DNA from: Escherichia coli
GTDB lineage: Bacteria; Pseudomonadota; Gammaproteobacteria; Enterobacterales; Enterobacteriaceae
Assembly (NCBI RefSeq): GCF_011045215.1
Contig: NZ_CP049201.1
Reading direction: 5' to 3' (one strand)
DNA length: 64,000 nucleotides
A model generated the notes under the pieces. It saw nothing but the letters and a program-made list of their open reading frames with translations, did no database searches and was not told the origin of the DNA. Positions within the stretch are counted from its first letter, which is position 1. Each line of letters begins with the position of its first letter. Below, piece by piece: positions 625-49,486 of this stretch. Made by a program: the position numbers and the translations under genes.

Positions 625-2094
625 ATGGTTTCCGAAACTAAAACCACAGAAGCGCCGGGCTTACGCCGTGAATTAAAGGCGCGTCACCTGACGATGATTG
701 CCATTGGCGGTTCCATCGGTACAGGTCTTTTTGTTGCCTCTGGCGCAACGATTTCTCAGGCAGGTCCGGGCGGGGCATTGCTCTCGTATATGTTGATTGG
801 CCTGATGGTTTACTTCCTGATGACCAGTCTCGGTGAACTGGCTGCATATATGCCGGTTTCCGGTTCGTTTGCCACTTACGGTCAGAACTATGTTGAAGAG
901 GGCTTTGGCTTCGCGCTGGGCTGGAACTACTGGTACAACTGGGCGGTGACTATTGCCGTTGACCTGGTTGCAGCTCAGCTGGTCATGAGCTGGTGGTTCC
1001 CGGATACACCGGGCTGGATCTGGAGTGCGTTGTTCCTCGGCGTTATCTTCCTGCTGAACTACATCTCTGTTCGCGGCTTTGGTGAAGCGGAATACTGGTT
1101 CTCACTGATCAAAGTCACGACAGTTATTGTCTTTATCATCGTTGGCGTGCTGATGATTATCGGTATCTTCAAAGGCGCGCAGCCTGCGGGCTGGAGCAAC
1201 TGGACAATCGGCGAAGCGCCGTTTGCTGGTGGTTTTGCGGCGATGATCGGCGTAGCTATGATTGTCGGCTTCTCTTTCCAGGGAACCGAGCTGATCGGTA
1301 TTGCTGCAGGCGAGTCCGAAGATCCGGGGAAAAACATTCCACGCGCGGTACGTCAGGTGTTCTGGCGAATCCTGTTGTTCTATGTGTTCGCGATCCTGAT
1401 TATCAGCCTGATTATTCCGTACACCGATCCGAGCCTGCTGCGTAACGATGTTAAAGACATCAGCGTTAGTCCGTTCACCCTGGTGTTCCAGCACGCGGGT
1501 CTGCTCTCTGCTGCGGCGGTGATGAACGCAGTTATTCTGACGGCGGTGCTGTCAGCGGGTAACTCCGGTATGTATGCGTCTACTCGTATGCTGTACACCC
1601 TGGCGTGTGACGGTAAAGCGCCGCGCATTTTCGCTAAACTGTCGCGTGGTGGCGTGCCGCGTAATGCGCTGTATGCGACGACGGTGATTGCCGGTCTGTG
1701 CTTCCTGACCTCCATGTTTGGCAACCAGACGGTATACCTGTGGCTGCTGAACACCTCCGGGATGACCGGTTTTATCGCCTGGCTGGGGATTGCCATTAGC
1801 CACTACCGCTTCCGTCGCGGTTACGTATTGCAGGGACACGACATTAACGATCTACCGTACCGTTCAGGTTTCTTCCCACTGGGTCCGATCTTCGCATTCA
1901 TTCTGTGTCTGATTATCACTTTGGGCCAGAACTACGAAGCATTCCTGAAAGATACCATTGACTGGGGCGGCGTAGCGGCAACGTATATTGGTATCCCGCT
2001 GTTCCTGATTATTTGGTTCGGCTACAAGCTGATTAAAGGAACCCACTTCGTACGCTACAGCGAAATGAAGTTCCCGCAGAACGATAAGAAATAA
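625..2094 (+). CDS. lysP: Lysine-specific permease (APC family amino acid transporter)
   Basis: 489 aa ORF, highly hydrophobic multi-helix protein; length and position next to cirA match K-12 LysP. Confidence 0.9.
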   Translation: MVSETKTTEAPGLRRELKARHLTMIAIGGSIGTGLFVASGATISQAGPGGALLSYMLIGLMVYFLMTSLGELAAYMPVSGSFATYGQNYVEEGFGFALGWNYWYNWAVTIAVDLVAAQLVMSWWFPDTPGWIWSALFLGVIFLLNYISVRGFGEAEYWFSLIKVTTVIVFIIVGVLMIIGIFKGAQPAGWSNWTIGEAPFAGGFAAMIGVAMIVGFSFQGTELIGIAAGESEDPGKNIPRAVRQVFWRILLFYVFAILIISLIIPYTDPSLLRNDVKDISVSPFTLVFQHAGLLSAAAVMNAVILTAVLSAGNSGMYASTRMLYTLACDGKAPRIFAKLSRGGVPRNALYATTVIAGLCFLTSMFGNQTVYLWLLNTSGMTGFIAWLGIAISHYRFRRGYVLQGHDINDLPYRSGFFPLGPIFAFILCLIITLGQNYEAFLKDTIDWGGVAATYIGIPLFLIIWFGYKLIKGTHFVRYSEMKFPQNDKK

Positions 2095-2113
2095 GTTTCT
2101 CCCTTCCTTGCTA

Positions 2114-2141
2114 AGCCCTCTCAACCGAGAGGGCTTTTTCA
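2114..2141 (+). terminator. Rho-independent terminator downstream of lysP
   Basis: Hairpin agccctctc-aacc-gagagggct followed by a TTTTT run. Confidence 0.6.
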
Positions 2142-2189
2142 ATTCCATTTCCCTTACAAATCATGCGGATATAAAATTTAACATTTGGA

Positions 2190-2218
2190 TTGATAATTGT
2201 TATCGTTTGCATTATCGT
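2190..2218 (+). promoter_or_regulatory. Putative Fur box(es) in the cirA promoter
   Basis: tgataattgttatcgtttgcattatcgtta resembles overlapping GATAATGATAATCATTATC-type Fur sites, about 170 bp upstream of cirA; cirA is classically iron/Fur regulated. Confidence 0.5.
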
Positions 2219-2385
2219 TACGCCGCAATCAAAAAAGGCTGACAAATCAGAGGCTGGTCCGGCTTTCTGGGATGATCACCTGCATACAAATAAGTCCACC
2301 GCGATGCTGCCGTACGCAAGGGGACGTGAAGAAGATGTGAGCGATAACCCATTTTATTTTCGTAGTTACCTCATGGAGATATGGA

Positions 2386-4365
2386 ATGTTTAGGTTGAAC
2401 CCTTTCGTACGGGTCGGGCTGTGTTTGTCCGCTATTTCTTGTGCATGGCCTGTGTTAGCGGTCGATGATGATGGCGAAACGATGGTTGTCACTGCATCTT
2501 CCGTTGAACAAAACCTTAAAGATGCACCCGCCAGTATCAGCGTCATTACCCAGGAAGACCTGCAGCGAAAACCGGTACAGAATCTGAAGGATGTCCTCAA
2601 AGAAGTGCCTGGCGTACAACTGACGAACGAAGGGGATAACCGTAAGGGCGTTAGTATTCGTGGTCTGGACAGCAGCTACACCCTGATTCTTGTCGACGGT
2701 AAACGCGTTAACTCCCGCAATGCCGTCTTCCGCCACAATGATTTCGATCTGAACTGGATCCCGGTCGATTCCATCGAACGTATTGAAGTGGTCCGTGGCC
2801 CGATGTCGTCGCTGTACGGTTCCGATGCGCTCGGCGGTGTAGTGAATATCATCACCAAAAAAATCGGTCAGAAATGGTCGGGTACCGTTACCGTCGATAC
2901 CACCATTCAGGAACATCGCGATCGCGGTGATACCTATAACGGTCAGTTCTTTACCAGTGGACCATTAATTGATGGTGTGCTGGGAATGAAAGCCTACGGC
3001 AGCCTGGCAAAACGTGAAAAGGATGACCCGCAAAACTCAACGACCACCGATACCGGAGAAACGCCGCGTATTGAAGGATTCTCCAGCCGCGACGGCAATG
3101 TCGAATTTGCCTGGACACCGAATCAAAATCACGATTTTACTGCCGGATACGGTTTCGACCGTCAGGATCGTGATTCCGACTCGCTGGACAAAAACCGCCT
3201 GGAACGCCAGAACTACTCCGTCAGCCATAATGGGCGTTGGGATTACGGCACCAGCGAACTGAAATACTACGGTGAGAAAGTCGAGAACAAAAACCCTGGC
3301 AACAGCAGCCCGATAACTTCCGAAAGCAATACGGTCGACGGCAAATACACGTTGCCGCTGACGGCGATTAATCAGTTTCTCACGGTTGGCGGTGAATGGC
3401 GTCACGACAAACTTAGCGATGCGGTGAACCTGACCGGGGGAACCAGCTCCAAAACGTCTGCCAGCCAGTACGCGCTGTTTGTGGAAGATGAATGGCGGAT
3501 CTTCGAGCCGCTGGCGCTGACGACCGGCGTGCGTATGGACGATCACGAAACCTACGGTGAACACTGGAGTCCGCGTGCCTACCTGGTTTATAACGCCACC
3601 GACACCGTAACGGTGAAAGGGGGCTGGGCGACGGCATTTAAAGCACCTTCTCTGTTGCAACTTAGCCCTGACTGGACGAGCAATTCCTGCCGTGGCGCAT
3701 GTAAGATTGTGGGTAGCCCGGATCTGAAACCAGAAACCAGCGAAAGTTGGGAGCTGGGGCTTTACTACATGGGTGAAGAAGGCTGGCTGGAAGGGGTTGA
3801 ATCCAGCGTTACCGTTTTCCGTAACGATGTGAAAGATCGTATCAGCATCAGCCGTACGTCTGACGTCAATGCTGCACCAGGCTACCAAAACTTTGTCGGT
3901 TTTACAGCGAACGGTGTGCCGGTATTTAGCTACTACAACGTTAACAAAGCACGTATTCAGGGCGTGGAAACCGAGCTGAAAATTCCGTTCAACGATGAAT
4001 GGAAACTGTCACTCAACTACACCTACAACGATGGTCGTGATGTCAGCAACGGCGAAAACAAACCGCTATCCGATCTGCCGTTCCATACCGCTAACGGTAC
4101 GCTGGACTGGAAACCGCTGGCGCTGGAAGACTGGTCATTCTATGTTTCTGGTCACTATACCGGGCAGAAACGAGCCGACAGCGCGACGGCTAAAACACCG
4201 GGCGGTTATACCATCTGGAATACCGGCGCGGCCTGGCAGGTGACTAAAGACGTCAAACTGCGCGCAGGCGTGCTGAACCTTGGCGACAAGGATCTCAGTC
4301 GTGACGACTACAGCTATAACGAAGACGGACGTCGTTACTTTATGGCAGTGGATTATCGCTTCTGA
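2386..4365 (+). CDS. cirA: TonB-dependent outer-membrane receptor for catecholate siderophores / colicin I receptor
   Basis: 659 aa ORF with N-terminal signal peptide, TonB-box-like ETMVVTAS, and C-terminal ...[10 protein letters not shown] ending in an aromatic residue typical of OM beta-barrels. Confidence 0.9.
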
Positions 4366-7474: not shown

Positions 7475-8515
7475 ATGATCACCATTCGTGATGTAGCGCG
7501 TCAGGCTGGCGTCTCTGTGGCAACGGTTTCCCGGGTGCTCAATAACAGCACGCTGGTCAGTGCCGATACGCGTGAAGCAGTAATGAAAGCCGTGAGTGAG
7601 CTGGATTATCGGCCAAACGCCAATGCCCAGGCGCTGGCAACTCAGGTTAGCGACACCATTGGCGTGGTGGTGATGGACGTTTCTGATGCGTTTTTCGGCG
7701 CGCTGGTAAAAGCGGTGGATCTGGTCGCCCAGCAGCATCAGAAATACGTGCTAATCGGCAATAGCTATCATGAAGCGGAAAAAGAACGTCACGCCATTGA
7801 GGTGTTAATTCGCCAGCGTTGTAATGCGTTGATTGTTCACTCAAAAGCATTGAGTGACGATGAACTGGCGCAATTTATGGATAACATTCCCGGTATGGTG
7901 TTAATCAACCGCGTTGTGCCGGGGTACGCCCATCGTTGCGTTTGCCTGGATAATCTCAGCGGTGCCCGAATGGCGACGCGCATGTTGCTGAATAACGGTC
8001 ATCAACGTATTGGTTATCTTTCTTCCAGTCACGGCATTGAAGATGACGCCATGCGTAAAGCAGGCTGGATGAGTGCGTTGAAAGAGCAGGATATTATTCC
8101 GCCGGAAGGCTGGATTGGCACTGGCACGCCGGACATGCCGGGCGGTGAGGCGGCGATGGTTGAACTGCTGGGGCGCAATCTACAACTTACCGCTGTATTT
8201 GCTTATAACGACAATATGGCCGCTGGCGCACTGACAGCATTAAAAGATAATGGCATTGCGATTCCGTTACATCTCTCAATCATCGGTTTCGATGATATTC
8301 CCATCGCCCGTTACACCGACCCGCAATTAACGACCGTGCGTTATCCCATTGCTTCAATGGCTAAATTAGCCACCGAACTGGCCTTGCAGGGTGCAGCAGG
8401 CAATATTGATCCTCGTGCCAGCCACTGTTTTATGCCGACGTTAGTGCGTCGCCATTCTGTCGCAACGCGCCAGAATGCGGCGGCGATCACTAACTCAACA
8501 AATCTGGCGATGTAA
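7475..8515 (+). CDS. galS: LacI/GalR-family repressor (mgl/gal isorepressor)
   Basis: N-terminal HTH ([24 protein letters not shown]) plus periplasmic-binding-protein-like sugar domain; directly upstream of mglBAC. Confidence 0.85.
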
Positions 8516-8527
8516 CCGCTTTCAATC

Positions 8528-8543
8528 TGTGAGTGATTTCACA
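8528..8543. promoter_or_regulatory. Putative CRP binding site in the galS-mglB intergenic region
   Basis: tgtgagtgatttcaca is a perfect TGTGA-N6-TCACA palindrome; the mgl promoter is known to be cAMP-CRP dependent. Which promoter it serves was not resolved. Confidence 0.4.
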
Positions 8544-8794
8544 GTATCTTAACAATGTGATAGCTATGATTGCACCGTTTTAACGTTGTAACCCGTATGT
8601 AACAGTGAATAATCACTTTCACCGAGGTAATAGCGTCATAACAACAATTAAAGCCGTTTTCTGGAGCGTTACCGGGCATGGAAGAACGAATTTTACAAAG
8701 TGAGCTTCGGCGTTCAGTAACACTTCATTAACTCTACTGCCCCGCCGAGCATTTATCTCAAGCACTACCCTGCATAAGAAAAACCGGAGATACC

Positions 8795-40340: not shown

Positions 40341-41473
40341 GACTGAAGATTCTCCGCAAGCCATGATGCCAGCTCGCCCGGTGTCATGGCGGCTATTTGT
40401 GCGCCGACATTTACCAGCGCCTGGGCCGTATCGTGGTCATAGCAAGGCGTTGCTGTGCTATCGAGCGCTGCCAGTCCCAGCACTTTGATGCCGCTCTGGA
40501 CACACTTTTTCACCTGATGCGTCAGTAATGATGATGAACCCCCTTCGTAAAAATCGCTCACGAGGATAATGACGCTTTTCGCTGGTTGTTCAATAAGTTG
40601 CCGACCATATTCCACGGCACTGGCGATATTGGTTCCGCCGCCTAATTGCACTTTCATTAATAACTCTACCGGATCGGCAACGTCTGCCGTGAGATCAACC
40701 ACGCTGGTGTCAAACGCCACCAGATGGGTACGAATGCCGGGTAACTGCCATAAACAGGCCGCCATCACCGCAGAGTGGATCACCGAATCGACCATCGAGC
40801 CGCTTTGATCAACCAGTAAGACCAGTTGCCATTGTTCGCTTTGGCGTTTAATGCGGCTGTTAAAGCGGGGGGATTCGATATACAACTTGCCGTGTTGCGG
40901 GTGCCAGTGTTGCAGGTTGGCGCGCAGAGTACTTTTGAAATCAAAGTTTCGCGCCAGTGGAATAAATGAGCGGCGACGGCGATCGCGGACACCAGAAAAA
41001 GCCTGACGAACTTCCTTTGCCAGTCGAGCCATAATTTCTTCAACAACCTGGCGCACTATCCGGCGGGCGGCAGCCAGTACTTCGGGATTCATCAGATGTT
41101 TGGTGTGCAAAACGGCGCGTAGCAGGCTTTCAGAAGGCTGCATACGTTCCAGCACGTCGAGATTCGTCACCACATCTTCAATGCCATAGCGCAGTACGGC
41201 ATCGCTTTCCAGCCGCTCAATCACCTGTTGCGGAAACAGCGTGTGAATACTGTTGATCCACTCAGGGGTGGTGAGATTTGAGCCACCTAATCCACCGGAG
41301 CGTTCACCACGCTGGAGCCGTTCAGGATCGCGCCCATACAGCCACTCCAGCGCGTGGTCTACCTGCCGGGCATTGTCATCCAGCCCACAAAGGGTCGTTT
41401 CTGCCGCTTCGCCAAGAATTAATCGCCAGCGTTGTAGCTCACGGGTAGTCAGAAGATCGTTCAGTTCAGACAT
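40337..41473 (-). CDS. yehP: von Willebrand factor A (VWA) domain protein
   Basis: MIDAS-type motif LVLLVDQSGSM...T...D and a VWA-like fold signature; internal start MSELNDLL gives 378 aa and an 8-nt overlap with the yehM stop. Confidence 0.7.
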   Translation of the reverse strand: MSELNDLLTTRELQRWRLILGEAAETTLCGLDDNARQVDHALEWLYGRDPERLQRGERSGGLGGSNLTTPEWINSIHTLFPQQVIERLESDAVLRYGIEDVVTNLDVLERMQPSESLLRAVLHTKHLMNPEVLAAARRIVRQVVEEIMARLAKEVRQAFSGVRDRRRRSFIPLARNFDFKSTLRANLQHWHPQHGKLYIESPRFNSRIKRQSEQWQLVLLVDQSGSMVDSVIHSAVMAACLWQLPGIRTHLVAFDTSVVDLTADVADPVELLMKVQLGGGTNIASAVEYGRQLIEQPAKSVIILVSDFYEGGSSSLLTHQVKKCVQSGIKVLGLAALDSTATPCYDHDTAQALVNVGAQIAAMTPGELASWLAENLQS

Positions 41474-43745
41474 GGAAAACTCCCCAGTGTTGCAGCGATG
41501 CCAGTGCCTGCTGTTCGAGTTGTTGATGATGTGCAATGGCTTGCGGAGGATAATGCAACGGCATTTGCAGCGCTGAAACAGGAAGCTGCGCAAGCTGGTA
41601 ATGCTCAAGCACCTGATGCGCCAGTGTCCCGCGTTCTCGTGGCGGTAGCCAGGCCATCGCCGCGCGCAAATCGGGCAAGGCGTTAATAAAATCGTCGTCA
41701 CTCAGTTGATTTAAATGACTACTGAAACCGGCGATAAATGCTGGTTGGCAGGCCAATTGATGACGGGCGAGCGCCAGCAAACCGTGCAGCGCCTCGCCGG
41801 ATTGTGCCGGGGATAACTGCGCCAGCATCGTCAGCGCCGCTTCGGCACTGGCGTTGGGATGTTCCAGACGCATCAGTGCGCCAAGAGCCGCGCCGCGATC
41901 CAGCGCCGGGACATGAATCGCCTGACTGCGGCGCTCCAGTAAGGCTACCGCCGCAGAAAGAAAAACGCCGGGTAAATTAACGCCGCTATGTAGATCGCGC
42001 AGGATATGGCAAAGCGCCTGCCAGCTATGCATGTGAGCGTGAAACTCCTTTTCATCTGGTCTGCCGTTAGATTCACACAGCCACAGCGTGCGATCGATAG
42101 CCGCGCATAACGTCGTTTGTAATATCTGCGCGCCTTGCATACCGCTAATTTCATCCAGCCGCCATAAGGCATATAGCACTTCCAGCGCCTGGCCCATTTC
42201 GGCAAATTGATTTTCCTGGGCGATTAATAATGTGAGTTGCTCCAGTAATTGCTCACTAAAGCTCGCCAGGCCCGCTAACGCCGCCTGGCTTAGACATGCG
42301 GTAATGCTGCCGATTCCACCCGCGTCCAGCATATCGGCTTCTAATTTATTGCGTGCGGCTTCCTGGAGCGTGGCACCAAAGCAGGCGGCCTCAATTAATG
42401 CCGCATGCTGGCTAAGCGGCTGGGTTAATTTCCACTGTTCTTCACCGTTACCCGCAAGCGTCAGTGTACTTCCGTGCTGGCGCACAATGCCGGGAATCTC
42501 CAGTATTGCCAGCCGATGTAACACCTGACTTTGCGCTAGTCCATTGGGGTTAAAGCGATTTAAGGTAAGCTCCACCGGAAGAGAGATTGCGGTACGTTCC
42601 AGTTCGCAGGTGACATCTTTTGGCAGAGGCGGTTGTGGCGTAGAAGGGGCAAGTTTACCGAATCCGTCACCCGCTAATGTGTCTATCAACGTTAGCAGAA
42701 TCGGATCGGTGTCGGGATGAATAACTCCGCGATAGCTCCACGGCAACGGCGCGTTCAGGGCTTCTTTAATCAGCGAGCCTGCTATGGCATCCAGCCAGTC
42801 AGTGCGTAACGGTAGTTTATGTCCGCGCAACTGTGCCAGCGCCATCGCATGCAGATGAGCGGCAGCCATATCCGCGGTCGAAGCAGGCAAGTGGTGTTGG
42901 CGCAAACGGGTAAGAACCGTTTTTAGCAGTTGTTCTCCCGCCTGCTGTAAGCCCCACTGCCAGCACCAGCTTTGCCAGACCGGGGCAGGCATTCCTGAAA
43001 GGTATCCTGCCAGCACATCAAGGCGCTTTTCACTGTAGGGTGTGAGATAACAACCTGTAACGGCATCTGCCAGCGAGGGCAATTCTGGCTTGTTAATGTC
43101 CTGCGGGCATTCGCGCCACATTTTTGCCAGTGCCGGAGCGTGCCAGCCACCGCAGACGACTAACACGTCGCCATTATTTTGCTGCACCGCCCATGCAATC
43201 CAGCGAGCCATAAAGGCTTCGCGCTGACGATTGAGTGCATCGCCGGGGAAATCGCCCCGCAGTTGGGCAAAATAGTGCGCCAGTGCAGAGGGTAATGCAG
43301 TTTGCTGGCTTTCATCTTCGAACAAGTGATCCCACAGGGTATCGCTGTTATCCATGCGGGAGGCACGCAGCAGCAAGGTCTGGCTTTCCTCTTGCGTTTC
43401 AGGCGAATCGTCCTCTTCTTCACTCTGTGCCCAGCAAGGCAAATCGATGAAGTAAGTTTGTGCCTGAATACGACGAGCGGCTTGTAGCGCCTGCCACTCC
43501 GGCGAAAATTCAGCAAATGGCGTCCAGGCACCACGCCCGGGGGCTGCACCGTCCTGATACTGGCAATAACTGTAAATAGCTACCGGAAGCTGGTGGGCTA
43601 AAAACAGTTCGTCTACCCGGTCATTAAAATCAGCCGGGCCTTCAATCAACACGTATCGTGGCCGCTGGCTTTCGATTAACGATTTCACCAGCCGGGCGCA
43701 GGCCGGACTATGATGCCGGATGCCGACAATTAACGGCTCGCTCAT
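41466..43745 (-). CDS. yehM: Large (759 aa) protein of unknown function in the MoxR-VWA module
   Basis: Internal start MSEPLIVGIRHH... sits 10 nt after the yehL stop; no domain recognisable by eye. Confidence 0.7.
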   Translation of the reverse strand: MSEPLIVGIRHHSPACARLVKSLIESQRPRYVLIEGPADFNDRVDELFLAHQLPVAIYSYCQYQDGAAPGRGAWTPFAEFSPEWQALQAARRIQAQTYFIDLPCWAQSEEEDDSPETQEESQTLLLRASRMDNSDTLWDHLFEDESQQTALPSALAHYFAQLRGDFPGDALNRQREAFMARWIAWAVQQNNGDVLVVCGGWHAPALAKMWRECPQDINKPELPSLADAVTGCYLTPYSEKRLDVLAGYLSGMPAPVWQSWCWQWGLQQAGEQLLKTVLTRLRQHHLPASTADMAAAHLHAMALAQLRGHKLPLRTDWLDAIAGSLIKEALNAPLPWSYRGVIHPDTDPILLTLIDTLAGDGFGKLAPSTPQPPLPKDVTCELERTAISLPVELTLNRFNPNGLAQSQVLHRLAILEIPGIVRQHGSTLTLAGNGEEQWKLTQPLSQHAALIEAACFGATLQEAARNKLEADMLDAGGIGSITACLSQAALAGLASFSEQLLEQLTLLIAQENQFAEMGQALEVLYALWRLDEISGMQGAQILQTTLCAAIDRTLWLCESNGRPDEKEFHAHMHSWQALCHILRDLHSGVNLPGVFLSAAVALLERRSQAIHVPALDRGAALGALMRLEHPNASAEAALTMLAQLSPAQSGEALHGLLALARHQLACQPAFIAGFSSHLNQLSDDDFINALPDLRAAMAWLPPRERGTLAHQVLEHYQLAQLPVSALQMPLHYPPQAIAHHQQLEQQALASLQHWGVFHV

Positions 43746-43755
43746 GCATCTTTCC

Positions 43756-44844
43756 TCACGGCAGGCGGTGGCGGGCTTGATAATAAGCCTGCCAGTGAGC
43801 TTCTTTATGTGTGGCGACACGCTGTTCGAAGTAACGGCGCAGACGAGCGCGATCTTCTTCGTTATCTTTGACGATGGTTCCGGCAATACAGTCCACCAGG
43901 TCGGCAGGCTCCCCCGCGCGATTCGCTAAAAACCAGGCGCGGACGCCCACGGCGTGGGCCACGTTCACGGCTTCAGCGGTGGACATAATCGCTGTTAGTG
44001 TATCCATTGACGTTTTCTTTTCGCCGTTGGCACGCAGATCGCGGAAGGTGCGGACCAGTAACTCCAGTACCGCGTCAGGCACTTTATGCGGAATACCGCT
44101 ATGGGCCAGCAAACGCGCCGAAGCACTGGCGACAAGCTCCAGCTCTTGGGCGAAATCCATAATCGGAAAGACAGTTTCAAAATCGAAGCGACGCTTTAGC
44201 GCAGCACTCATTTCATTGACGCCGCGATCGCGGGTATTGGCAGTGGCAATAATATTAAAGCCTTCTCGCGCATAGAGCTGACTGGCTTCACCAGTGAGTT
44301 CCGGCACCGTCATCACCCTGTCAGAAAGCATACCTAACAGACAGTCTTGCACTTCCAGCGGTGTACGCGTTATCTCTTCAAAACGGACGATTTTGCCGTC
44401 GCGCATTCCCTGGTAAAGCGGGGCAGGGACCAGCGCTTCCGTTGATGGACCATGATTGATAAGCAGGGCGTAGTTCCAGCCGTACTTGATTTGATCTTCG
44501 GTAGTAGATGCGCCGCCCTGGATGGTTAACCCGGCATCGCCGCTAATAGAGGTTGCCAGTAATTCAGACAGGAGAGATTTTGCGGTGCCAGGTTCCCCCA
44601 CCAACATCAAACCGCGTCCGGTGGCAAGAGTGACTAACATACGTTCGACAGCGGAGGGACTAATCACCACTTTACGGCTAATATTTTGCGCGCTATCGCC
44701 AAGGATAAAAGCACGGGCCGCAGGCAAACTTAACTGCCAACCGGGCGGGCAAGGTGCGTTATCATTTTGTTTTAATTTTGCCAGTTCATCGGCGTATAAC
44801 ACAGCAGCAGGCGGACGCTGCAGATGATTATTCTGCGGTGACAT
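43756..44844 (-). CDS. yehL: MoxR-like AAA+ ATPase
   Basis: Walker A GEPGTAKS is encoded at 44575..44598 (read directly from the DNA); Walker B-like and sensor regions follow; internal start MSPQNNH... preceded by an SD gives 362 aa. Confidence 0.8.
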   Translation of the reverse strand: MSPQNNHLQRPPAAVLYADELAKLKQNDNAPCPPGWQLSLPAARAFILGDSAQNISRKVVISPSAVERMLVTLATGRGLMLVGEPGTAKSLLSELLATSISGDAGLTIQGGASTTEDQIKYGWNYALLINHGPSTEALVPAPLYQGMRDGKIVRFEEITRTPLEVQDCLLGMLSDRVMTVPELTGEASQLYAREGFNIIATANTRDRGVNEMSAALKRRFDFETVFPIMDFAQELELVASASARLLAHSGIPHKVPDAVLELLVRTFRDLRANGEKKTSMDTLTAIMSTAEAVNVAHAVGVRAWFLANRAGEPADLVDCIAGTIVKDNEEDRARLRRYFEQRVATHKEAHWQAYYQARHRLP

Positions 44845-44952
44845 ATATTCATCCCTGAAATGTATTAATGAAATAAACGATATTTTACGCGCAATAAATG
44901 TTTGGCGCATTAGTTGTTTGAGCGAAAAATATCTGGAAAGCAGATTACAGTA

Positions 44953-44990
44953 AATAAAAAAACCTGCTGGTGAGGCAGGTTCTTTTATTT
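44953..44990. terminator. Bidirectional rho-independent terminator in the yehK-yehL intergenic region
   Basis: 7-bp stem aacctgc/gcaggtt flanked by an A run upstream and a T run downstream, so it gives a U tract on either strand. Confidence 0.5.
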
Positions 44991-45276
44991 ACTATTTTCA
45001 GGCCTAACACCACAGCCTGTGCAACATCGTGTTCCAACGAACGAATTATAACCACGGCTGGACCCCGTTGCAATTAAGATAATGAGATTTATAATCCAGA
45101 CCGTTGGGACGTTGCGCCGGATCGAACCTATTTCAAGTCCTGGCTACCGGACGGGTGGTGCTGCAGGTGGTGCCCTGATCCGGAGTGCAACATCGTGGTC
45201 CAACATACGTAAACCAGTATCGACAGGCAGTGTAAGGGTAAGGTGCTGGTGTTGCGCTCCTTAATAAGGAGAGCGG

Positions 45277-45366
45277 ATGGACTCGCTGACACAAAAGTTA
45301 ACCGTGCTCATTGCTGTACTGGAGCTATTAGTAGCTCTGTTACGTTTGATTGATTTGTTGAAGTAA
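45277..45366 (+). CDS. Unannotated 29-codon hydrophobic/amphipathic peptide ORF (candidate small toxin-like membrane peptide)
   Basis: ATG preceded by SD aaggag (5 nt spacing); MDSLTQKLTVLIAVLELLVALLRLIDLLK; putative promoter ttgcaa-N16-tataat at 45068..45095; hairpin aaggggga-N7-tccccctt at 45389..45411. Confidence 0.35.
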   Translation: MDSLTQKLTVLIAVLELLVALLRLIDLLK

Positions 45367-45475
45367 CGGGCAAATTGAAACGCATCTAAGGGGGAAAACC
45401 GCTTCCCCCTTTAATAAAGCTATACTCGTCATACTTCAAGTTGCATGTGCTGCGACTTGAATTATCTAGAGTATA

Positions 45476-45793
45476 TTATTCTATTTCTTGGTTGAATATA
45501 TTCTGTAGTTCACGATTAAAAATTGCTATTACAGTTTCAGGTGATTCACCTCGTAATTTCCGCTCATCAATACACTCATCTCTTATATAAATCAACGCAT
45601 CATTTATTAGCGGGTCAGCATCTTCTCGATCACGTTGATGAAATGTTGGATGTAGCCGGAATCGCTCCAGTCGATAGACGGAACCTGTAAATAATTCAGA
45701 GCATTTATGGATCTCAAGTCTGAAGGAAAACGGATCTTCAGGTACAGGGACCTCATAATCGTAAATAGCAACCAGCTCTTTTTGCACGATCAT
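45476..45793 (-). CDS. yehK: Small acidic protein of unknown function
   Basis: 105 aa ORF 60 bp downstream of yehI on the same strand. Confidence 0.6.
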   Translation of the reverse strand: MIVQKELVAIYDYEVPVPEDPFSFRLEIHKCSELFTGSVYRLERFRLHPTFHQRDREDADPLINDALIYIRDECIDERKLRGESPETVIAIFNRELQNIFNQEIE

Positions 45794-45853: not shown

Positions 45854-48800
45854 TTAATGGAAAATGACGTCAGCTGCGCTTAACGCCTCACTCAAATCAA
45901 ACACATCGAGTTCGGCAAAAGTGACGGATTTATTGTTACGGTAAACCCGAAGAGAATGGAAGCTCATCAGCGCTTTGCTATCAGCACTGTAGTGGTTAAA
46001 ACCGGGTGAAAACTTAAGGACCAGCCGGTACTCACCCAGGTCATAGACAAATGCGTCCTCATAGCCTGACTCCCAGCCTTTGTATCGCATTCCCATAAGT
46101 TGCCCAACGGTAGCGGATTTACCTTCCCAGCGAGTCAGGCTGTTACTGGTTGACTCGTCAGGTGTGAGCAGCACCGTGCGGCGCGACAACTGGCGAAAAG
46201 GCGGCATAATTTCGTAATCGGCAAAAAGCTGTGCAAATTCACTGCGCATTTCTACTGTCATTTCTAACGGGTGGGCAATGCCAATCAGAGCGTCCGCAGG
46301 CAGGTCAATTGGCTCATCTTGCGCATTGCAGAACTCCCCCTCTGCGGCCACACGAAAGGCGTTGAGTAAACAACGCGGTTCATTTGCCGGATAAACCCCC
46401 CATATTAATCGCTGGGTAACCAGACGGGTAAAGGGATGATTAACAAACAGAGAATGAAAATCTGCCAGCGACCAGCGTCGGGTGGTACGTAGGGCCGTTT
46501 CAAGACGCGGGAGCAGGTTTTTGCTCACCTGAGTGGCATCTTTTTTTAGCCCTTTTAGTTGGGCCAGTGCCTCGGGCGCTTTCAGTTGATCGTCATCGGC
46601 GCGCAACCGGGGAACGCTTTTCTGGCGAACGTTTTGCTGATCAAAGATAATCGGGTTGAGGTTTTCATCGAAGCGAACGGTAAACTGCCGGGGACCAAAA
46701 TCAAAAATCAACGCCTGCGGATCATCAAGGCCAAGGGTTGGGACTAATCTGTCCGCTAGCTCTTCCTGGCTTAGCCCGCGATTTTCTGCGACCACCTGAA
46801 GAAATTCCGCCGCGTTATCACGTAAGGGGCGGGATTTAGCCCGTTGCGATATATGATGCAGCTGTATCAGCGCCATATCATTATTCATCAGGGTAAGGAT
46901 GTTCAGGCCGCTGACAGCACGGGCAGATTTGCCTTCTTGTGGCCAGGCGAGGATCTGTGTCGTCAGATCCCGTGCCGTGCTTTCGTCACCAAAGAGACTT
47001 AACGCCAGAAATGCCCAGTTGTCTTTTGCGGGGGCACCAGCTTGTTGCCACGCAGTGAAGAGATCCCAGGCAAAAGCTGCCAGCGTTTGTGGCTGGCAGA
47101 ACGTTTTCAGTTGTTCCAGCCCGCTATAAAAACGTCCCCCCTGGGTAAAGCGCAGCATTTCGCCGAAAATTTCCAGAGCGTCATCGGTAACAGTTTGATT
47201 ATTAGTGATAAGGCGCGGCCTGGACCACATTTGCGGATGCCAGAAATCAGGGGCTTTTGGAATGCGTGCCGGGTAAATCTCTATTGGACTCTGTTTAAGT
47301 AATTGTTCCAGGGCAGGCCATAGATCTGTACGCTGCCAACGATTGGCTAAAGTTTGTAGCAATTCGCCATGCCCATGTTCGTAAAGTAAACGCAGGGCAA
47401 GTAATGCAGCTTCGCTTTTATCGCTGGATTTGGTGAAGACAAGAGGGATAAGTGCAGTAGCCGTATGTTCCGGCCAATGTAAAATCCACTGGCGAGCCAG
47501 ATTACGCTGGCCCGCAAAACGGTGCCAGACGCGGGCAATGGGCAGGGCCAGTTCTGTTGCGCCGAAATTTAAAATTAACGGAAATGTTTCTTTTGGACGA
47601 TGTGAAAAAGCCAACAGCAGACCTGGTAGCGCATCCAATCCGAGGATACTGAGAAAATAGTCCTCACCCGCGAACAGATGCTTTTTCTCATTGATACGCA
47701 GCCAGAAGGTCAAAGCTATCTCACGCGGCAACTGTGCCAATAAATACAGGTTCCAGACACTCTTTTCCGGACGATAACGTGAGTAGTTGTCATTTTCCCA
47801 TATGTTAATTAACGCTTCTACGTGACCACTGCGAAGCGCCTGTTCTGCTAATGGTGCTTCCGGGGAGTTCCAGCCATTCAGGATCTCTTCAACCCGCCCC
47901 TGGTAGTAATGCCACTCAACAATGAGTGAATTGCGTGCAGCATCCAGTTTTCCGGGGAGTATATAATTCAAAAACAGCCATACATCATCCCCAAAACCCA
48001 GTTCCTGTAATACAACTCGCCCACTTTTTTGTTCCATGCGTTCCGCAAGAGATTCCGTGCTGAAATAACGGGCAGGCTCAGTGGCGGCAAGCCTCTCTCG
48101 TTCGCCTGGTTGCCAGTAAACTTGCGGAGTTAATTCGAGCCGTGCCAAATCAAGACGTGGAGCTGTCATTTTTTTCTTACTACGCCACGGTGGTGAAACG
48201 AGGATTTCAGGCAGATTGCTGTTATCGGTGCCATCAATAACCGGTTTTGGCAGTGCCGATAAATAACTCTTCAGCACTGCCCTGGCTTGAGTACTTAACC
48301 ACGGCATCACTTCTGCTGCCAGTTGTGGCTGCGATGCCATCAGCGTTTGTAACAGCGTACGCCAGTATTCATCGCGTGCTTTTTGCTGTGCAGGCAGCTT
48401 TTTGTCTTCGATGATTGGATAACCAGGGCGGGCTGGTGGTTCTGTTAACGCCAGCAGTTCTGCCAGTGCGGCGAGCGTCGCATGGGGGAAGTTTTTATGG
48501 TATTTAGCTACACGTTGCAGGCTGGGTTTGTTTTTATCAGCCACCAGTAGCAAGGTGCGGATGACTTGCGGATGGTTAATTTGTACCAGCAGACTGCCGC
48601 AATCTTCTTTATAGGCATACATCGCGAGGCGCGGAATGGCTGCCAGTCCTTGTTCGCGCAAAAGGGCGGCGCAGGCCGCGTAGCCGAAGTGGTTTTCATG
48701 CGACATGTAGCTGGCTTCTCGATCGCTAAATATATCCTGGCTCCAGTAGTGTTCGAGTTTTCTCACCGCTGTGGGGTCATTAGCTACAACTTTTAACCAC

Positions 48801-49486
48801 TCCTTAGAATGAAAATGAGTTCGCGGGCATTCAAGGCCTACCAACTCATTGGCTATTTCTGGTTTTTCCGGGAGGATCAGCGCAATAAAAGGGCGGCGAA
48901 CTTTGGTTATTCCTGGTAGTGCGGCAATGAGTTTGTCGGCGCAACGCTGCCAGCAGCTTTCCTCTGCCAGAGAGAGGTGTTTACGCAGTCGGAGATCGAA
49001 TTCGTTATAGGTTTCTGAGCGATAACCATAGCCATAGTCCTCGTTCTGATACTGCAATGTGACTACCAGAGGATCACTCTCATAACACCGTGCAATAAAC
49101 TGGCGTGCAATCACCACCTCAGTCGCATATTCCAGCCCCTCTTGTTGGACGATTTCGTCGAGCAACTGTTGGCTGTCATTTTGCGCGATACAGGCTAGCG
49201 CCGCCATTGTCCGGGCCGGGATTGAGGGTTTGTGTTCGCCGATCAAGTTGATGGCCTGCGTGATGGCGGACTGCCACTCCAGTGAAAAATTTTCATAACG
49301 CCAGACAATGTTTTTTTTCTTCTCAGCTTTTTGTAGCAATTCATCACCCAGTGTCTGAATGATGCTTTCAGTGATAACAGGCACTGGTTCGCCCGGCCAA
49401 TTGCGATGGCTGAGTGGTGTTTTACCCTTTTTATATTTCAGTTCCAGTTGGGCGTTATCAGCCAGCCACGGTAATTCCTTGTCCAT
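45854..49486 (-). CDS. yehI: Giant DUF4132-family protein (MolR paralog lacking the N-terminal WGR segment)
   Basis: 1210 aa; C-terminal ~450 aa aligns by eye with the C-termini of the two upstream paralogs. Confidence 0.8.
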   Translation of the reverse strand: MDKELPWLADNAQLELKYKKGKTPLSHRNWPGEPVPVITESIIQTLGDELLQKAEKKKNIVWRYENFSLEWQSAITQAINLIGEHKPSIPARTMAALACIAQNDSQQLLDEIVQQEGLEYATEVVIARQFIARCYESDPLVVTLQYQNEDYGYGYRSETYNEFDLRLRKHLSLAEESCWQRCADKLIAALPGITKVRRPFIALILPEKPEIANELVGLECPRTHFHSKEWLKVVANDPTAVRKLEHYWSQDIFSDREASYMSHENHFGYAACAALLREQGLAAIPRLAMYAYKEDCGSLLVQINHPQVIRTLLLVADKNKPSLQRVAKYHKNFPHATLAALAELLALTEPPARPGYPIIEDKKLPAQQKARDEYWRTLLQTLMASQPQLAAEVMPWLSTQARAVLKSYLSALPKPVIDGTDNSNLPEILVSPPWRSKKKMTAPRLDLARLELTPQVYWQPGERERLAATEPARYFSTESLAERMEQKSGRVVLQELGFGDDVWLFLNYILPGKLDAARNSLIVEWHYYQGRVEEILNGWNSPEAPLAEQALRSGHVEALINIWENDNYSRYRPEKSVWNLYLLAQLPREIALTFWLRINEKKHLFAGEDYFLSILGLDALPGLLLAFSHRPKETFPLILNFGATELALPIARVWHRFAGQRNLARQWILHWPEHTATALIPLVFTKSSDKSEAALLALRLLYEHGHGELLQTLANRWQRTDLWPALEQLLKQSPIEIYPARIPKAPDFWHPQMWSRPRLITNNQTVTDDALEIFGEMLRFTQGGRFYSGLEQLKTFCQPQTLAAFAWDLFTAWQQAGAPAKDNWAFLALSLFGDESTARDLTTQILAWPQEGKSARAVSGLNILTLMNNDMALIQLHHISQRAKSRPLRDNAAEFLQVVAENRGLSQEELADRLVPTLGLDDPQALIFDFGPRQFTVRFDENLNPIIFDQQNVRQKSVPRLRADDDQLKAPEALAQLKGLKKDATQVSKNLLPRLETALRTTRRWSLADFHSLFVNHPFTRLVTQRLIWGVYPANEPRCLLNAFRVAAEGEFCNAQDEPIDLPADALIGIAHPLEMTVEMRSEFAQLFADYEIMPPFRQLSRRTVLLTPDESTSNSLTRWEGKSATVGQLMGMRYKGWESGYEDAFVYDLGEYRLVLKFSPGFNHYSADSKALMSFHSLRVYRNNKSVTFAELDVFDLSEALSAADVIFH

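Follow-up and report, generated by a model that had tools for sequence, protein, structure and literature searches.

A direct repeat in an intergenic spacer of the Escherichia coli chromosome is, with a probability of roughly 95%, the base-pairing module of a chromosomal type I toxin-antitoxin locus, zorP/orzP, whose mechanism is read by analogy with the zorO/OrzO pair. The repeat lies in a 64,000-nucleotide stretch of contig NZ_CP049201.1 (hereafter the window), within a spacer of about 630 bp between yehL (minus strand) and yehK (45476-45793, minus strand), the flanking genes being named through near-identical RefSeq E. coli genomes. The yehL-yehK spacer carries no RefSeq annotation in any of the 11 genomes fetched. 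What the present analysis establishes is the anatomy of the locus, its family membership, its match to published coordinates and the way in which seed and target covary.

The zor-orz locus, its seed-target pairing, the V1 specificity element and its distribution in E. coli are already known, and the repeat adds nothing beyond them; single-copy, multi-copy and orz-only configurations have been published by Fozo and colleagues. The analysis provides an exact map of the toxin-antitoxin module in a region left unannotated in all of the RefSeq genomes fetched, and illustrates that a divergent type I locus can be recognised, from sequence alone, by a direct repeat flanking its promoter. Covariation across genera, together with the relation among mRNA 5' end, seed and target, gives modest comparative support to the published standby and processing model.

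The repeat and its two roles

The two 27-nt copies, ctgtgcaacatcgtgttccaacgaacg (45017-45043) and gagtgcaacatcgtggtccaacatacg (45183-45209), are identical at 22 of 27 positions on direct reading of the sequence, and a repeat search returned a 25-nt direct repeat (45019-45043 and 45185-45209; 88% identity, spacing 166). Both the identity and the coordinates given in a preliminary description of this DNA are thereby borne out, as is its placement of one copy upstream of a small-gene promoter (TTGCAA at 45068, TATAAT ending at 45095) and of the other within the leader. The core of the repeat spans 20 nt, 45019-45038 against 45185-45204, with 19 of 20 positions identical. This core, GTGCAACATCGTGTTCCAAC, occurs at only two sites in the 64-kb window (with zero and one mismatch, in a search that allowed up to three mismatches on both strands); the chance expectation is 0.01 matches, and none of 100 dinucleotide shuffles gave two. 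The repeat is confirmed as real and beyond chance. Its functional extent is the 20 nt of the core: positions 45039-45043 fall in the gap between the -10 box of orzP and its start site and are untranscribed, and positions 45017-45018 do not match between the copies.

The upstream copy (45019-45038, minus strand) is the seed of the antitoxin RNA OrzP, nucleotides +1 to +20, 5'-GUUGGAACACGAUGUUGCAC-3', and the downstream copy (45185-45204, plus strand) is the OrzP target at +83 to +102 of the zorP leader, 5'-GUGCAACAUCGUGGUCCAAC-3'. Because orzP and zorP are divergently transcribed, the antisense complementarity of their RNAs reads as a direct repeat in the DNA. The earlier suggestion, by which the copies are target sites of an antisense RNA like those of type I toxin-antitoxin loci, had the right kind of system but does not hold for both copies: the upstream one is the seed within orzP itself, a gene that matches the antitoxin family RF02083 at 99.9 bits, and the downstream one alone is a target.

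The antitoxin gene

The orzP gene, encoding the sRNA antitoxin OrzP of about 83 nt, occupies 44956-45038 on the minus strand, beginning at the start site (45038) and ending where the U-run stops (44956). The Rfam family of OrzO-P RNA antitoxins matches 44956-45031 on the minus strand well above its gathering score of 60 (E 1.1e-16), over the full model (positions 1-76 of 76), and the score is equal in K-12 and in strain E105. At its 3' end lies an intrinsic terminator hairpin with U-run (44957-44985, minus strand), which the Rfam structure line depicts as a 12-bp terminal stem followed by the U-run, and which is corroborated by an inverted repeat and by a terminator-like site at 44961-44981 in a consensus scan. 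Minus-strand Thr_leader and Trp_leader matches and a plus-strand OrzO-P match, all of 22-26 bits on this same hairpin, were dismissed as falling far below gathering. The start was placed 7 nt past the last base of the -10 box TATAAT (45045-45050, minus strand; consensus scan), in agreement with the published numbering.

Orz RNAs carry a V1 specificity triplet at +9 to +11, which is GAA in OrzO and ACG in OrzP (Wen et al. 2014, PMC3919570). Counted from a start at 45038, the sRNA of the window reads GUUGGAAC-ACG-AUGUUGCAC, and because ACG falls at +9 to +11 it is, by this triplet, OrzP, of the P subtype. Positions 44950-45055 are identical to the sequence of OrzPmg of K-12 MG1655, an RNA seen by northern blotting and reportedly 100% identical to OrzP of EDL933 (PMC11264685).

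Promoters, leader and toxin

The hexamer TTGCAA at 45068-45073 is its own reverse complement, and a consensus scan predicts it on both strands as the -35 element of two divergent promoters; TTGCAA is likewise the published -35 of both zor and orz (PMC11264685). Each promoter is sigma-70-like and scores 10/12, the minus-strand one combining TTGCAA (45073-45068), a 17-nt spacer and TATAAT (45050-45045), and the plus-strand one TTGCAA (45068-45073), a 16-nt spacer and the zorP -10 box TATAAT (45090-45095; consensus scan). With the -35 shared in this way, RNA polymerase presumably engages only one of the orzP and zorP promoters at a time.

From a start at 45103, about 7-8 nt past the -10 box and positioned by promoter geometry and the published numbering, the zorP 5' untranslated region runs to 45276 on the plus strand, a length of 174 nt that equals that published for zorO (PMC5397157). 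The ribosome-binding site AAGGAG (45266-45271, plus strand) falls at +164 to +169, the same position as published (PMC5397157). Transfer of the published zorO values (PMC5397157) through the identical geometry of the untranslated region places the region named EAP (for 'exposed after processing'), a putative ribosome standby site, at leader +73 to +102 (45175-45204, plus strand). The conserved GGAGTG motif (PMC11264685) is found at 45182, and the OrzP target forms the EAP region's 3' end, 73-92 nt upstream of the zorP ATG. Under the two start sites adopted here all of these landmarks coincide, namely the V1 ACG, the length of the leader, the positions of the ribosome-binding site and EAP region, and the distance of the target.

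The zorP coding sequence (45277-45366, plus strand, from the list of open reading frames) specifies a 29-aa hydrophobic toxin, MDSLTQKLTVLIAVLELLVALLRLIDLLK, which is the same protein as that of copy 1 in O157:H7 and O111:H8; ZorP has been described as ZorO carrying T3S (PMC11264685). No model in Pfam or NCBIfam matched the peptide, and both libraries appear to be without a Zor model. A probable zorP terminator hairpin (45390-45418, plus strand), recognised by eye as GGGGGAA/TTCCCCC followed by TTTAATAAA, went uncalled by the consensus scan because its T-run is short.

Seed-target pairing and the proposed mechanism

Nucleotides +1 to +20 of OrzP pair with +83 to +102 of the zorP leader at 19 of 20 positions in the pattern 6(1)13, the lone mismatch being an A.G between sRNA +7 (45032) and position 45198, and the longest contiguous stretch comprising 13 pairs. 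The calculated energy of this duplex is -32.7 kcal/mol, as compared to -15.4 +/- 2.6 kcal/mol (minimum -25.0) for 500 shuffled seeds. According to a published rule, repression requires either 15 or more contiguous nucleotides of pairing or, where there is one internal mismatch, 17 nt or more (PMC3919570). The P pair satisfies this rule by the discontinuous route only (19 nt, one mismatch), a route worked out on OrzO mutants; mismatches at certain positions, such as the first V1 base, abolished repression (PMC3919570). By the same rule, a survey of more than 2,000 E. coli strains credits 99.8% of Orz RNAs with the ability to repress the cognate zor (PMC11264685).

The sister pair supplies the functional background. 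The zorO toxin arrests growth and OrzO rescues it, the first 18 nt of OrzO are enough for repression, and compensatory V1 mutations in zorO and OrzO restore repression, for which Hfq is dispensable and RNase III is required for the full effect (PMC3919570). The ribosome-binding site of zorO is sequestered, removal of the first 28 nt of the mRNA opens the EAP region and raises translation, and OrzO pairing at the EAP region blocks translation (PMC5397157). Because the geometry of the P pair equals that of zorO/OrzO, we infer the same mechanism for it. Two divergent sigma-70 promoters with one common palindromic -35 would drive OrzP leftward and zorP mRNA rightward, the latter bearing its 174-nt leader and encoding a predicted 29-aa membrane toxin. 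In the unprocessed zorP mRNA the RNA's own 5' end (+1 to +22) would cover the target site in cis, and loss of the first 28 nt would expose it. The OrzP seed, by occupying the standby region of the leader, would block ribosome loading, and the OrzP-zorP duplex would lead to RNase III-dependent decay of the toxin mRNA, the predicted outcome being that ZorP production is prevented. For the P pair, repression, action through the standby site, dependence on RNase III and processing are expectations taken from the zorO/OrzO literature. Folding of the leader in silico gives a mean P(unpaired) for the target of 0.31 in the full leader and 0.44 after removal of 28 nt, a modest difference obtained from single-sequence folding and not relied on.

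Covariation across zor-orz units

Comparison was based on 11 E. coli genomes spanning the range of similarity and on a scan of one genome per species, in which an 18-mer around the ribosome-binding site and ATG served as query. The scan returned eight loci, with about nine chance matches expected in 298 Gb, and four of the eight (L013, L018, L019 and like, in Lachnospiraceae and Actinomycetota metagenome-assembled genomes) were discarded as chance matches that contain unrelated long open reading frames and are without zor features. The units fall into six seed/target types: P, O, Q and the E2348/69 type in E. coli, one in Superficieibacter electus (L012), and one in a further contig, L016. Automated extraction left out some units with a variant -35 or ribosome-binding site context (the O unit of L005, and L011).

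Cognate seeds and targets pair at 19-20 of 20 positions, whereas non-cognate combinations reach at most 9 contiguous pairs. Compensatory double changes within E. coli occur at +5, +6, +9, +10 and +11, a clean count; with both outgroups included they extend to 16 of 20 positions, a figure that is indicative only, mixing orthologous and non-orthologous columns, with the register of S. electus shifted 5 nt relative to E. coli. Tandem P and O units are found in O157:H7 and O111:H8, where the P unit has the exact seed, target and mismatch of the window; other strains have P+Q, O+Q or P+O+Q arrangements, and the cryptic Escherichia clades and E. whittamii have P and O units. The seeds and targets of S. 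electus and L016 (GCGCGACAAUACAAACUCAG, GCGCGACAAUACAACUUAGC) are unlike the P type at most positions and are perfectly matched within each unit. The preliminary description had named as telling against a function for the repeat its absence from orthologous regions that retain the open reading frame; every examined locus that keeps the open reading frame was found to keep a cognate repeat. In K-12 the open reading frame and the target have been lost, and the sRNA copy alone is kept.

The A.G mismatch at +7 is present in every P-type unit sampled (L001, L003-L007, L009, L015 and L017), extending to the units of E. whittamii and a cryptic Escherichia clade. Position +7 is mismatched in the Q and E2348/69 types as well (A.A and G.A), and the O type alone pairs there. 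The conserved mismatch may be a selected tuning feature.

Several of the loci deserve brief description in their own right. Outside Escherichia, zor-orz lies at about 8240-8660 of the S. electus locus and on the minus strand of contig JAEWTL010000060 (L016); the 29-aa toxins are MDTLTQKLIVLIAVLELLLALLRLIDLLK and MDMLTRKLIVLIAVLELLLALLRLIDLLK, respectively, and the leader core and ribosome-binding site are conserved. The 'Bacillota MAG' label of L016 probably reflects misbinning of an enterobacterial contig. The O8:H8 strain 16F5M1D1 (L005) has three tandem units, P, O and Q, at 1500-3100, and strain VTB97448v (L006) has, upstream of its P and Q units, one more unit (1380-1460) that is truncated and consists of orzP only; the gene adjacent to the array in both strains is annotated as a 117-aa hypothetical protein, not as the 105-aa YehK. 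The segment of K-12 MG1655 at 2057-2245 of its locus (L002) corresponds to 44956-45136 of the window and retains orzP in full, together with the zorP promoter and some 30 nt from the start of the leader, approximately the segment that is removed by 5' processing. There the leader is joined directly to the right arm of the yehK-side palindrome, the target, EAP region and toxin open reading frame being deleted. The resulting orphan antitoxin, OrzPmg, has been published (PMC11264685).

Alternative explanations for the repeat

The covariation bears directly on the other ways in which the repeat might be explained. The preliminary description also raised the idea of binding sites for a regulator, and copies that flank a divergent promoter region, in direct orientation and 166 bp apart, could in principle be joined by looping as operator sites of a DNA-binding regulator of the small-gene promoter. 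The upstream copy, however, is part of a transcribed gene whose sRNA matches a curated family of RNAs, and the sequence of the repeat varies between loci while its copies stay complementary as RNA. Six distinct repeat sequences were found, each matched to its own partner only; tandem paralogues in O157:H7, O111:H8 and O8:H8 differ between units and match within a unit, and the repeats of Superficieibacter and L016, which differ from the P type at most positions, are matched still. One regulator could not recognise all of these variants, a regulator gene linked to the locus is absent, and compensatory RNA mutations explain regulation without a protein, Hfq being unneeded (PMC3919570). Because the sequence changes while the copies stay complementary, the repeat is better read as a site of RNA-RNA pairing, and an operator function is very improbable.

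Type I and trans-acting sRNAs can have several targets, and a third antisense RNA encoded elsewhere might in principle act on both copies, a reading for which no support was found here. Neither the 20-mer nor its reverse complement is found at any other place in the window at up to three mismatches. The upstream copy, which lies in orzP and upstream of the zorP start, has the non-transcribed sense relative to orzP and so would not exist as RNA of the same sense as the downstream copy, and the locus supplies a complementary RNA of its own; this explanation has next to no chance of being right. Hardly more credence is due to a match by chance, or to a local duplication that has left an inert relic. 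The sRNA seed may well stem from duplication, and the copies are similar at three of the five untranscribed positions past the orzP start (45039-45043). Against this stand the very low chance expectation, the maintenance of complementarity by compensatory change across species, which demands selection, and the function of the sister pair, which has been shown experimentally (PMC3919570, PMC5397157).

A third, inverted copy at the 5' end of the zorP mRNA

The first 22 nt of the zorP mRNA (+1 to +22; 45103-45124, plus strand) form a third, inverted copy of the repeat and are the predicted cis partner of the target site that OrzP recognises. This stretch is contained in the 28 nt that zorO loses by its published 5' processing. 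Applied to eight leader variants, RNAalifold pairs +1 to +6 with +97 to +102, +9 to +13 with +86 to +90, and +15 to +22 with +73 to +81, and a single-sequence fold of the window leader agrees in pairing the 5' end with the target region. Compensatory changes are seen in 7 of the 34 consensus pairs; among those in the terminal helix are GC to AU and UA to CG. For the duplex that the zorP 5' end forms in cis with the target site the calculated energy is -25.1 kcal/mol, against -32.3 kcal/mol for the OrzP duplex in trans, and the cis helix carries an A7.G96 mismatch, the same as that at +7 of the sRNA. Cis sequestration of the EAP region has already been published (PMC5397157); the comparison of the cis helix is in keeping with the published 'closed until processed' model, to which it lends modest support.

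The 5' end of zorP, GUUGGGAC-GUUGC, resembles the OrzP seed, GUUGGAAC-ACGAU-GUUGC, and the orzP and zorP start sites are nearly symmetric about the palindromic -35 hexamer. The resemblance recurs, in other letters, in Superficieibacter and L016; the three elements are altered together there, and the mRNAs start with CUGAGUUU and GCUAGGUU and the pairing stretches of the sRNAs with CUGAGUUU and GCUAAGUU, respectively. The leader 5' end in both, like the seed and target, differs from the E. coli P type at most positions. One speculative reading, which we consider rather unlikely, is that the antitoxin arose as an inverted duplicate of the toxin promoter and its cis anti-standby leader; selected tuning by the +7 mismatch is a related point, held just as tentatively. 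Were the inverted duplication true, the sRNA would be a detachable copy of the mRNA's built-in silencer. Since both RNAs must pair with the same site, the resemblance of the two 5' ends could also be convergence on a common target. Similarity between the orzP and zorP promoter spacers was sought as evidence of duplication and none was seen. The words 'palindrom' and 'duplication' are absent from the zor-orz papers, as far as these are readable as text.

Comparison with known type I systems

The closest relative of the locus is zorP/orzP of E. coli O157:H7 EDL933, known as the z3290 locus (Fozo 2010; Wen 2014, PMC3919570). The sRNA family is the same, the seed is identical to that of copy 1 in strain E32511, and both loci also have ACG at V1, the A.G mismatch between +7 and the target, the same ZorP protein, a 174-nt untranslated region and a yehL-proximal position. 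The arrangements differ in that P is the sole zor-orz unit in the yehL-yehK spacer of the window (about 630 bp), whereas in O157:H7 and O111:H8 the P unit is followed by a zorO/orzO unit (spacer of about 1240 bp); the window and O157:H7 zorP coding sequences show a few synonymous differences. The zorO/orzO pair itself shares the divergent genes, an sRNA 5' end that pairs with +83 to +102 of a 174-nt leader, the EAP and standby logic, a sequestered ribosome-binding site, and a 29-aa toxin that differs at one residue. Its seed is different at +6 and at +9 to +11 (V1 GAA, where P has ACG), the target changing to match, and it forms 18 contiguous pairs, including one G.U, in place of the 6(1)13 pattern. 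OrzP does not repress zorO (PMC3919570), and the O and P pairs are thus insulated.

Among other systems, tisB/istR-1 and shoB/ohsC are mechanistic parallels, divergent loci whose short seeds act on standby sites in the leader. In tisB/istR-1 the common traits are a divergent sRNA whose complementarity of about 20 nt lies far upstream of a sequestered ribosome-binding site, competition of istR-1 with standby ribosomes, RNase III cleavage of the duplex, and a full-length tisB mRNA that is inactive, its 5' part hiding the standby site until 5' processing activates it (PMC5397157). The sequences and toxin family are unrelated, however, tisB is under LexA/SOS control, and the complete inertness of its full-length mRNA contrasts with the weak translation of full-length zorO. 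The shoB/ohsC and dinQ/agrB loci are likewise divergent type I loci in which 18-21 nt of complementarity between sRNA and leader appear as a direct repeat (PMC3919570), with other toxins and other sRNA families, and a segment of the zor untranslated region has 71-74% similarity to plasmid dinQ leaders (PMC11264685). In hok/sok and ibs/sib a small hydrophobic toxin is also repressed by an antisense RNA, but there the antitoxin is encoded on the strand opposite the toxin gene, which it overlaps with full complementarity. The orzP and zorP transcripts (44956-45038 and from 45103, respectively) do not overlap, the shared promoter lies between them, and their complementarity is limited to 20 nt.

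The locus has each of the sequence features of the zor-orz family that were considered: the RF02083 match, a divergent 29-aa open reading frame with its ribosome-binding site, agreement with the pairing rule, V1, the leader and promoters, and the location. It is, by these features, a zor-orz locus of the P subtype, for which toxicity, rescue and RNase III dependence are predicted by analogy.

Genomic neighbourhood

The flanking genes lie on the minus strand and are poorly characterised: yehL (43756-44910), encoding an AAA-type ATP-binding protein, yehM (41466-43886), with DUF5682, and yehI (45854-49486), with DUF4132 and 1210 aa. The longest open reading frames in the window start upstream of the RefSeq starts, as for yehL, where the open reading frame is 384 aa and the annotated protein 362 aa. 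The orzP terminator lies on the same strand as yehL, some 110 bp upstream of the annotated start of that gene.

Directly downstream of zorP, and adjoining the yehK stop codon, is a 55-bp near-palindrome (45421-45475) with 25-nt arms that are 80% complementary and a 5-nt gap. It has a weak, partial match to the Rfam family isrH (22 bits, below gathering). The whole 581-bp query matched a median of 5 places per genome, and the near-palindrome segment matches other sites in E. coli chromosomes, for example at 288 kb in ETEC H10407. Because the segment recurs elsewhere in E. coli chromosomes, the near-palindrome is probably a dispersed palindromic repeat, present once in the window.
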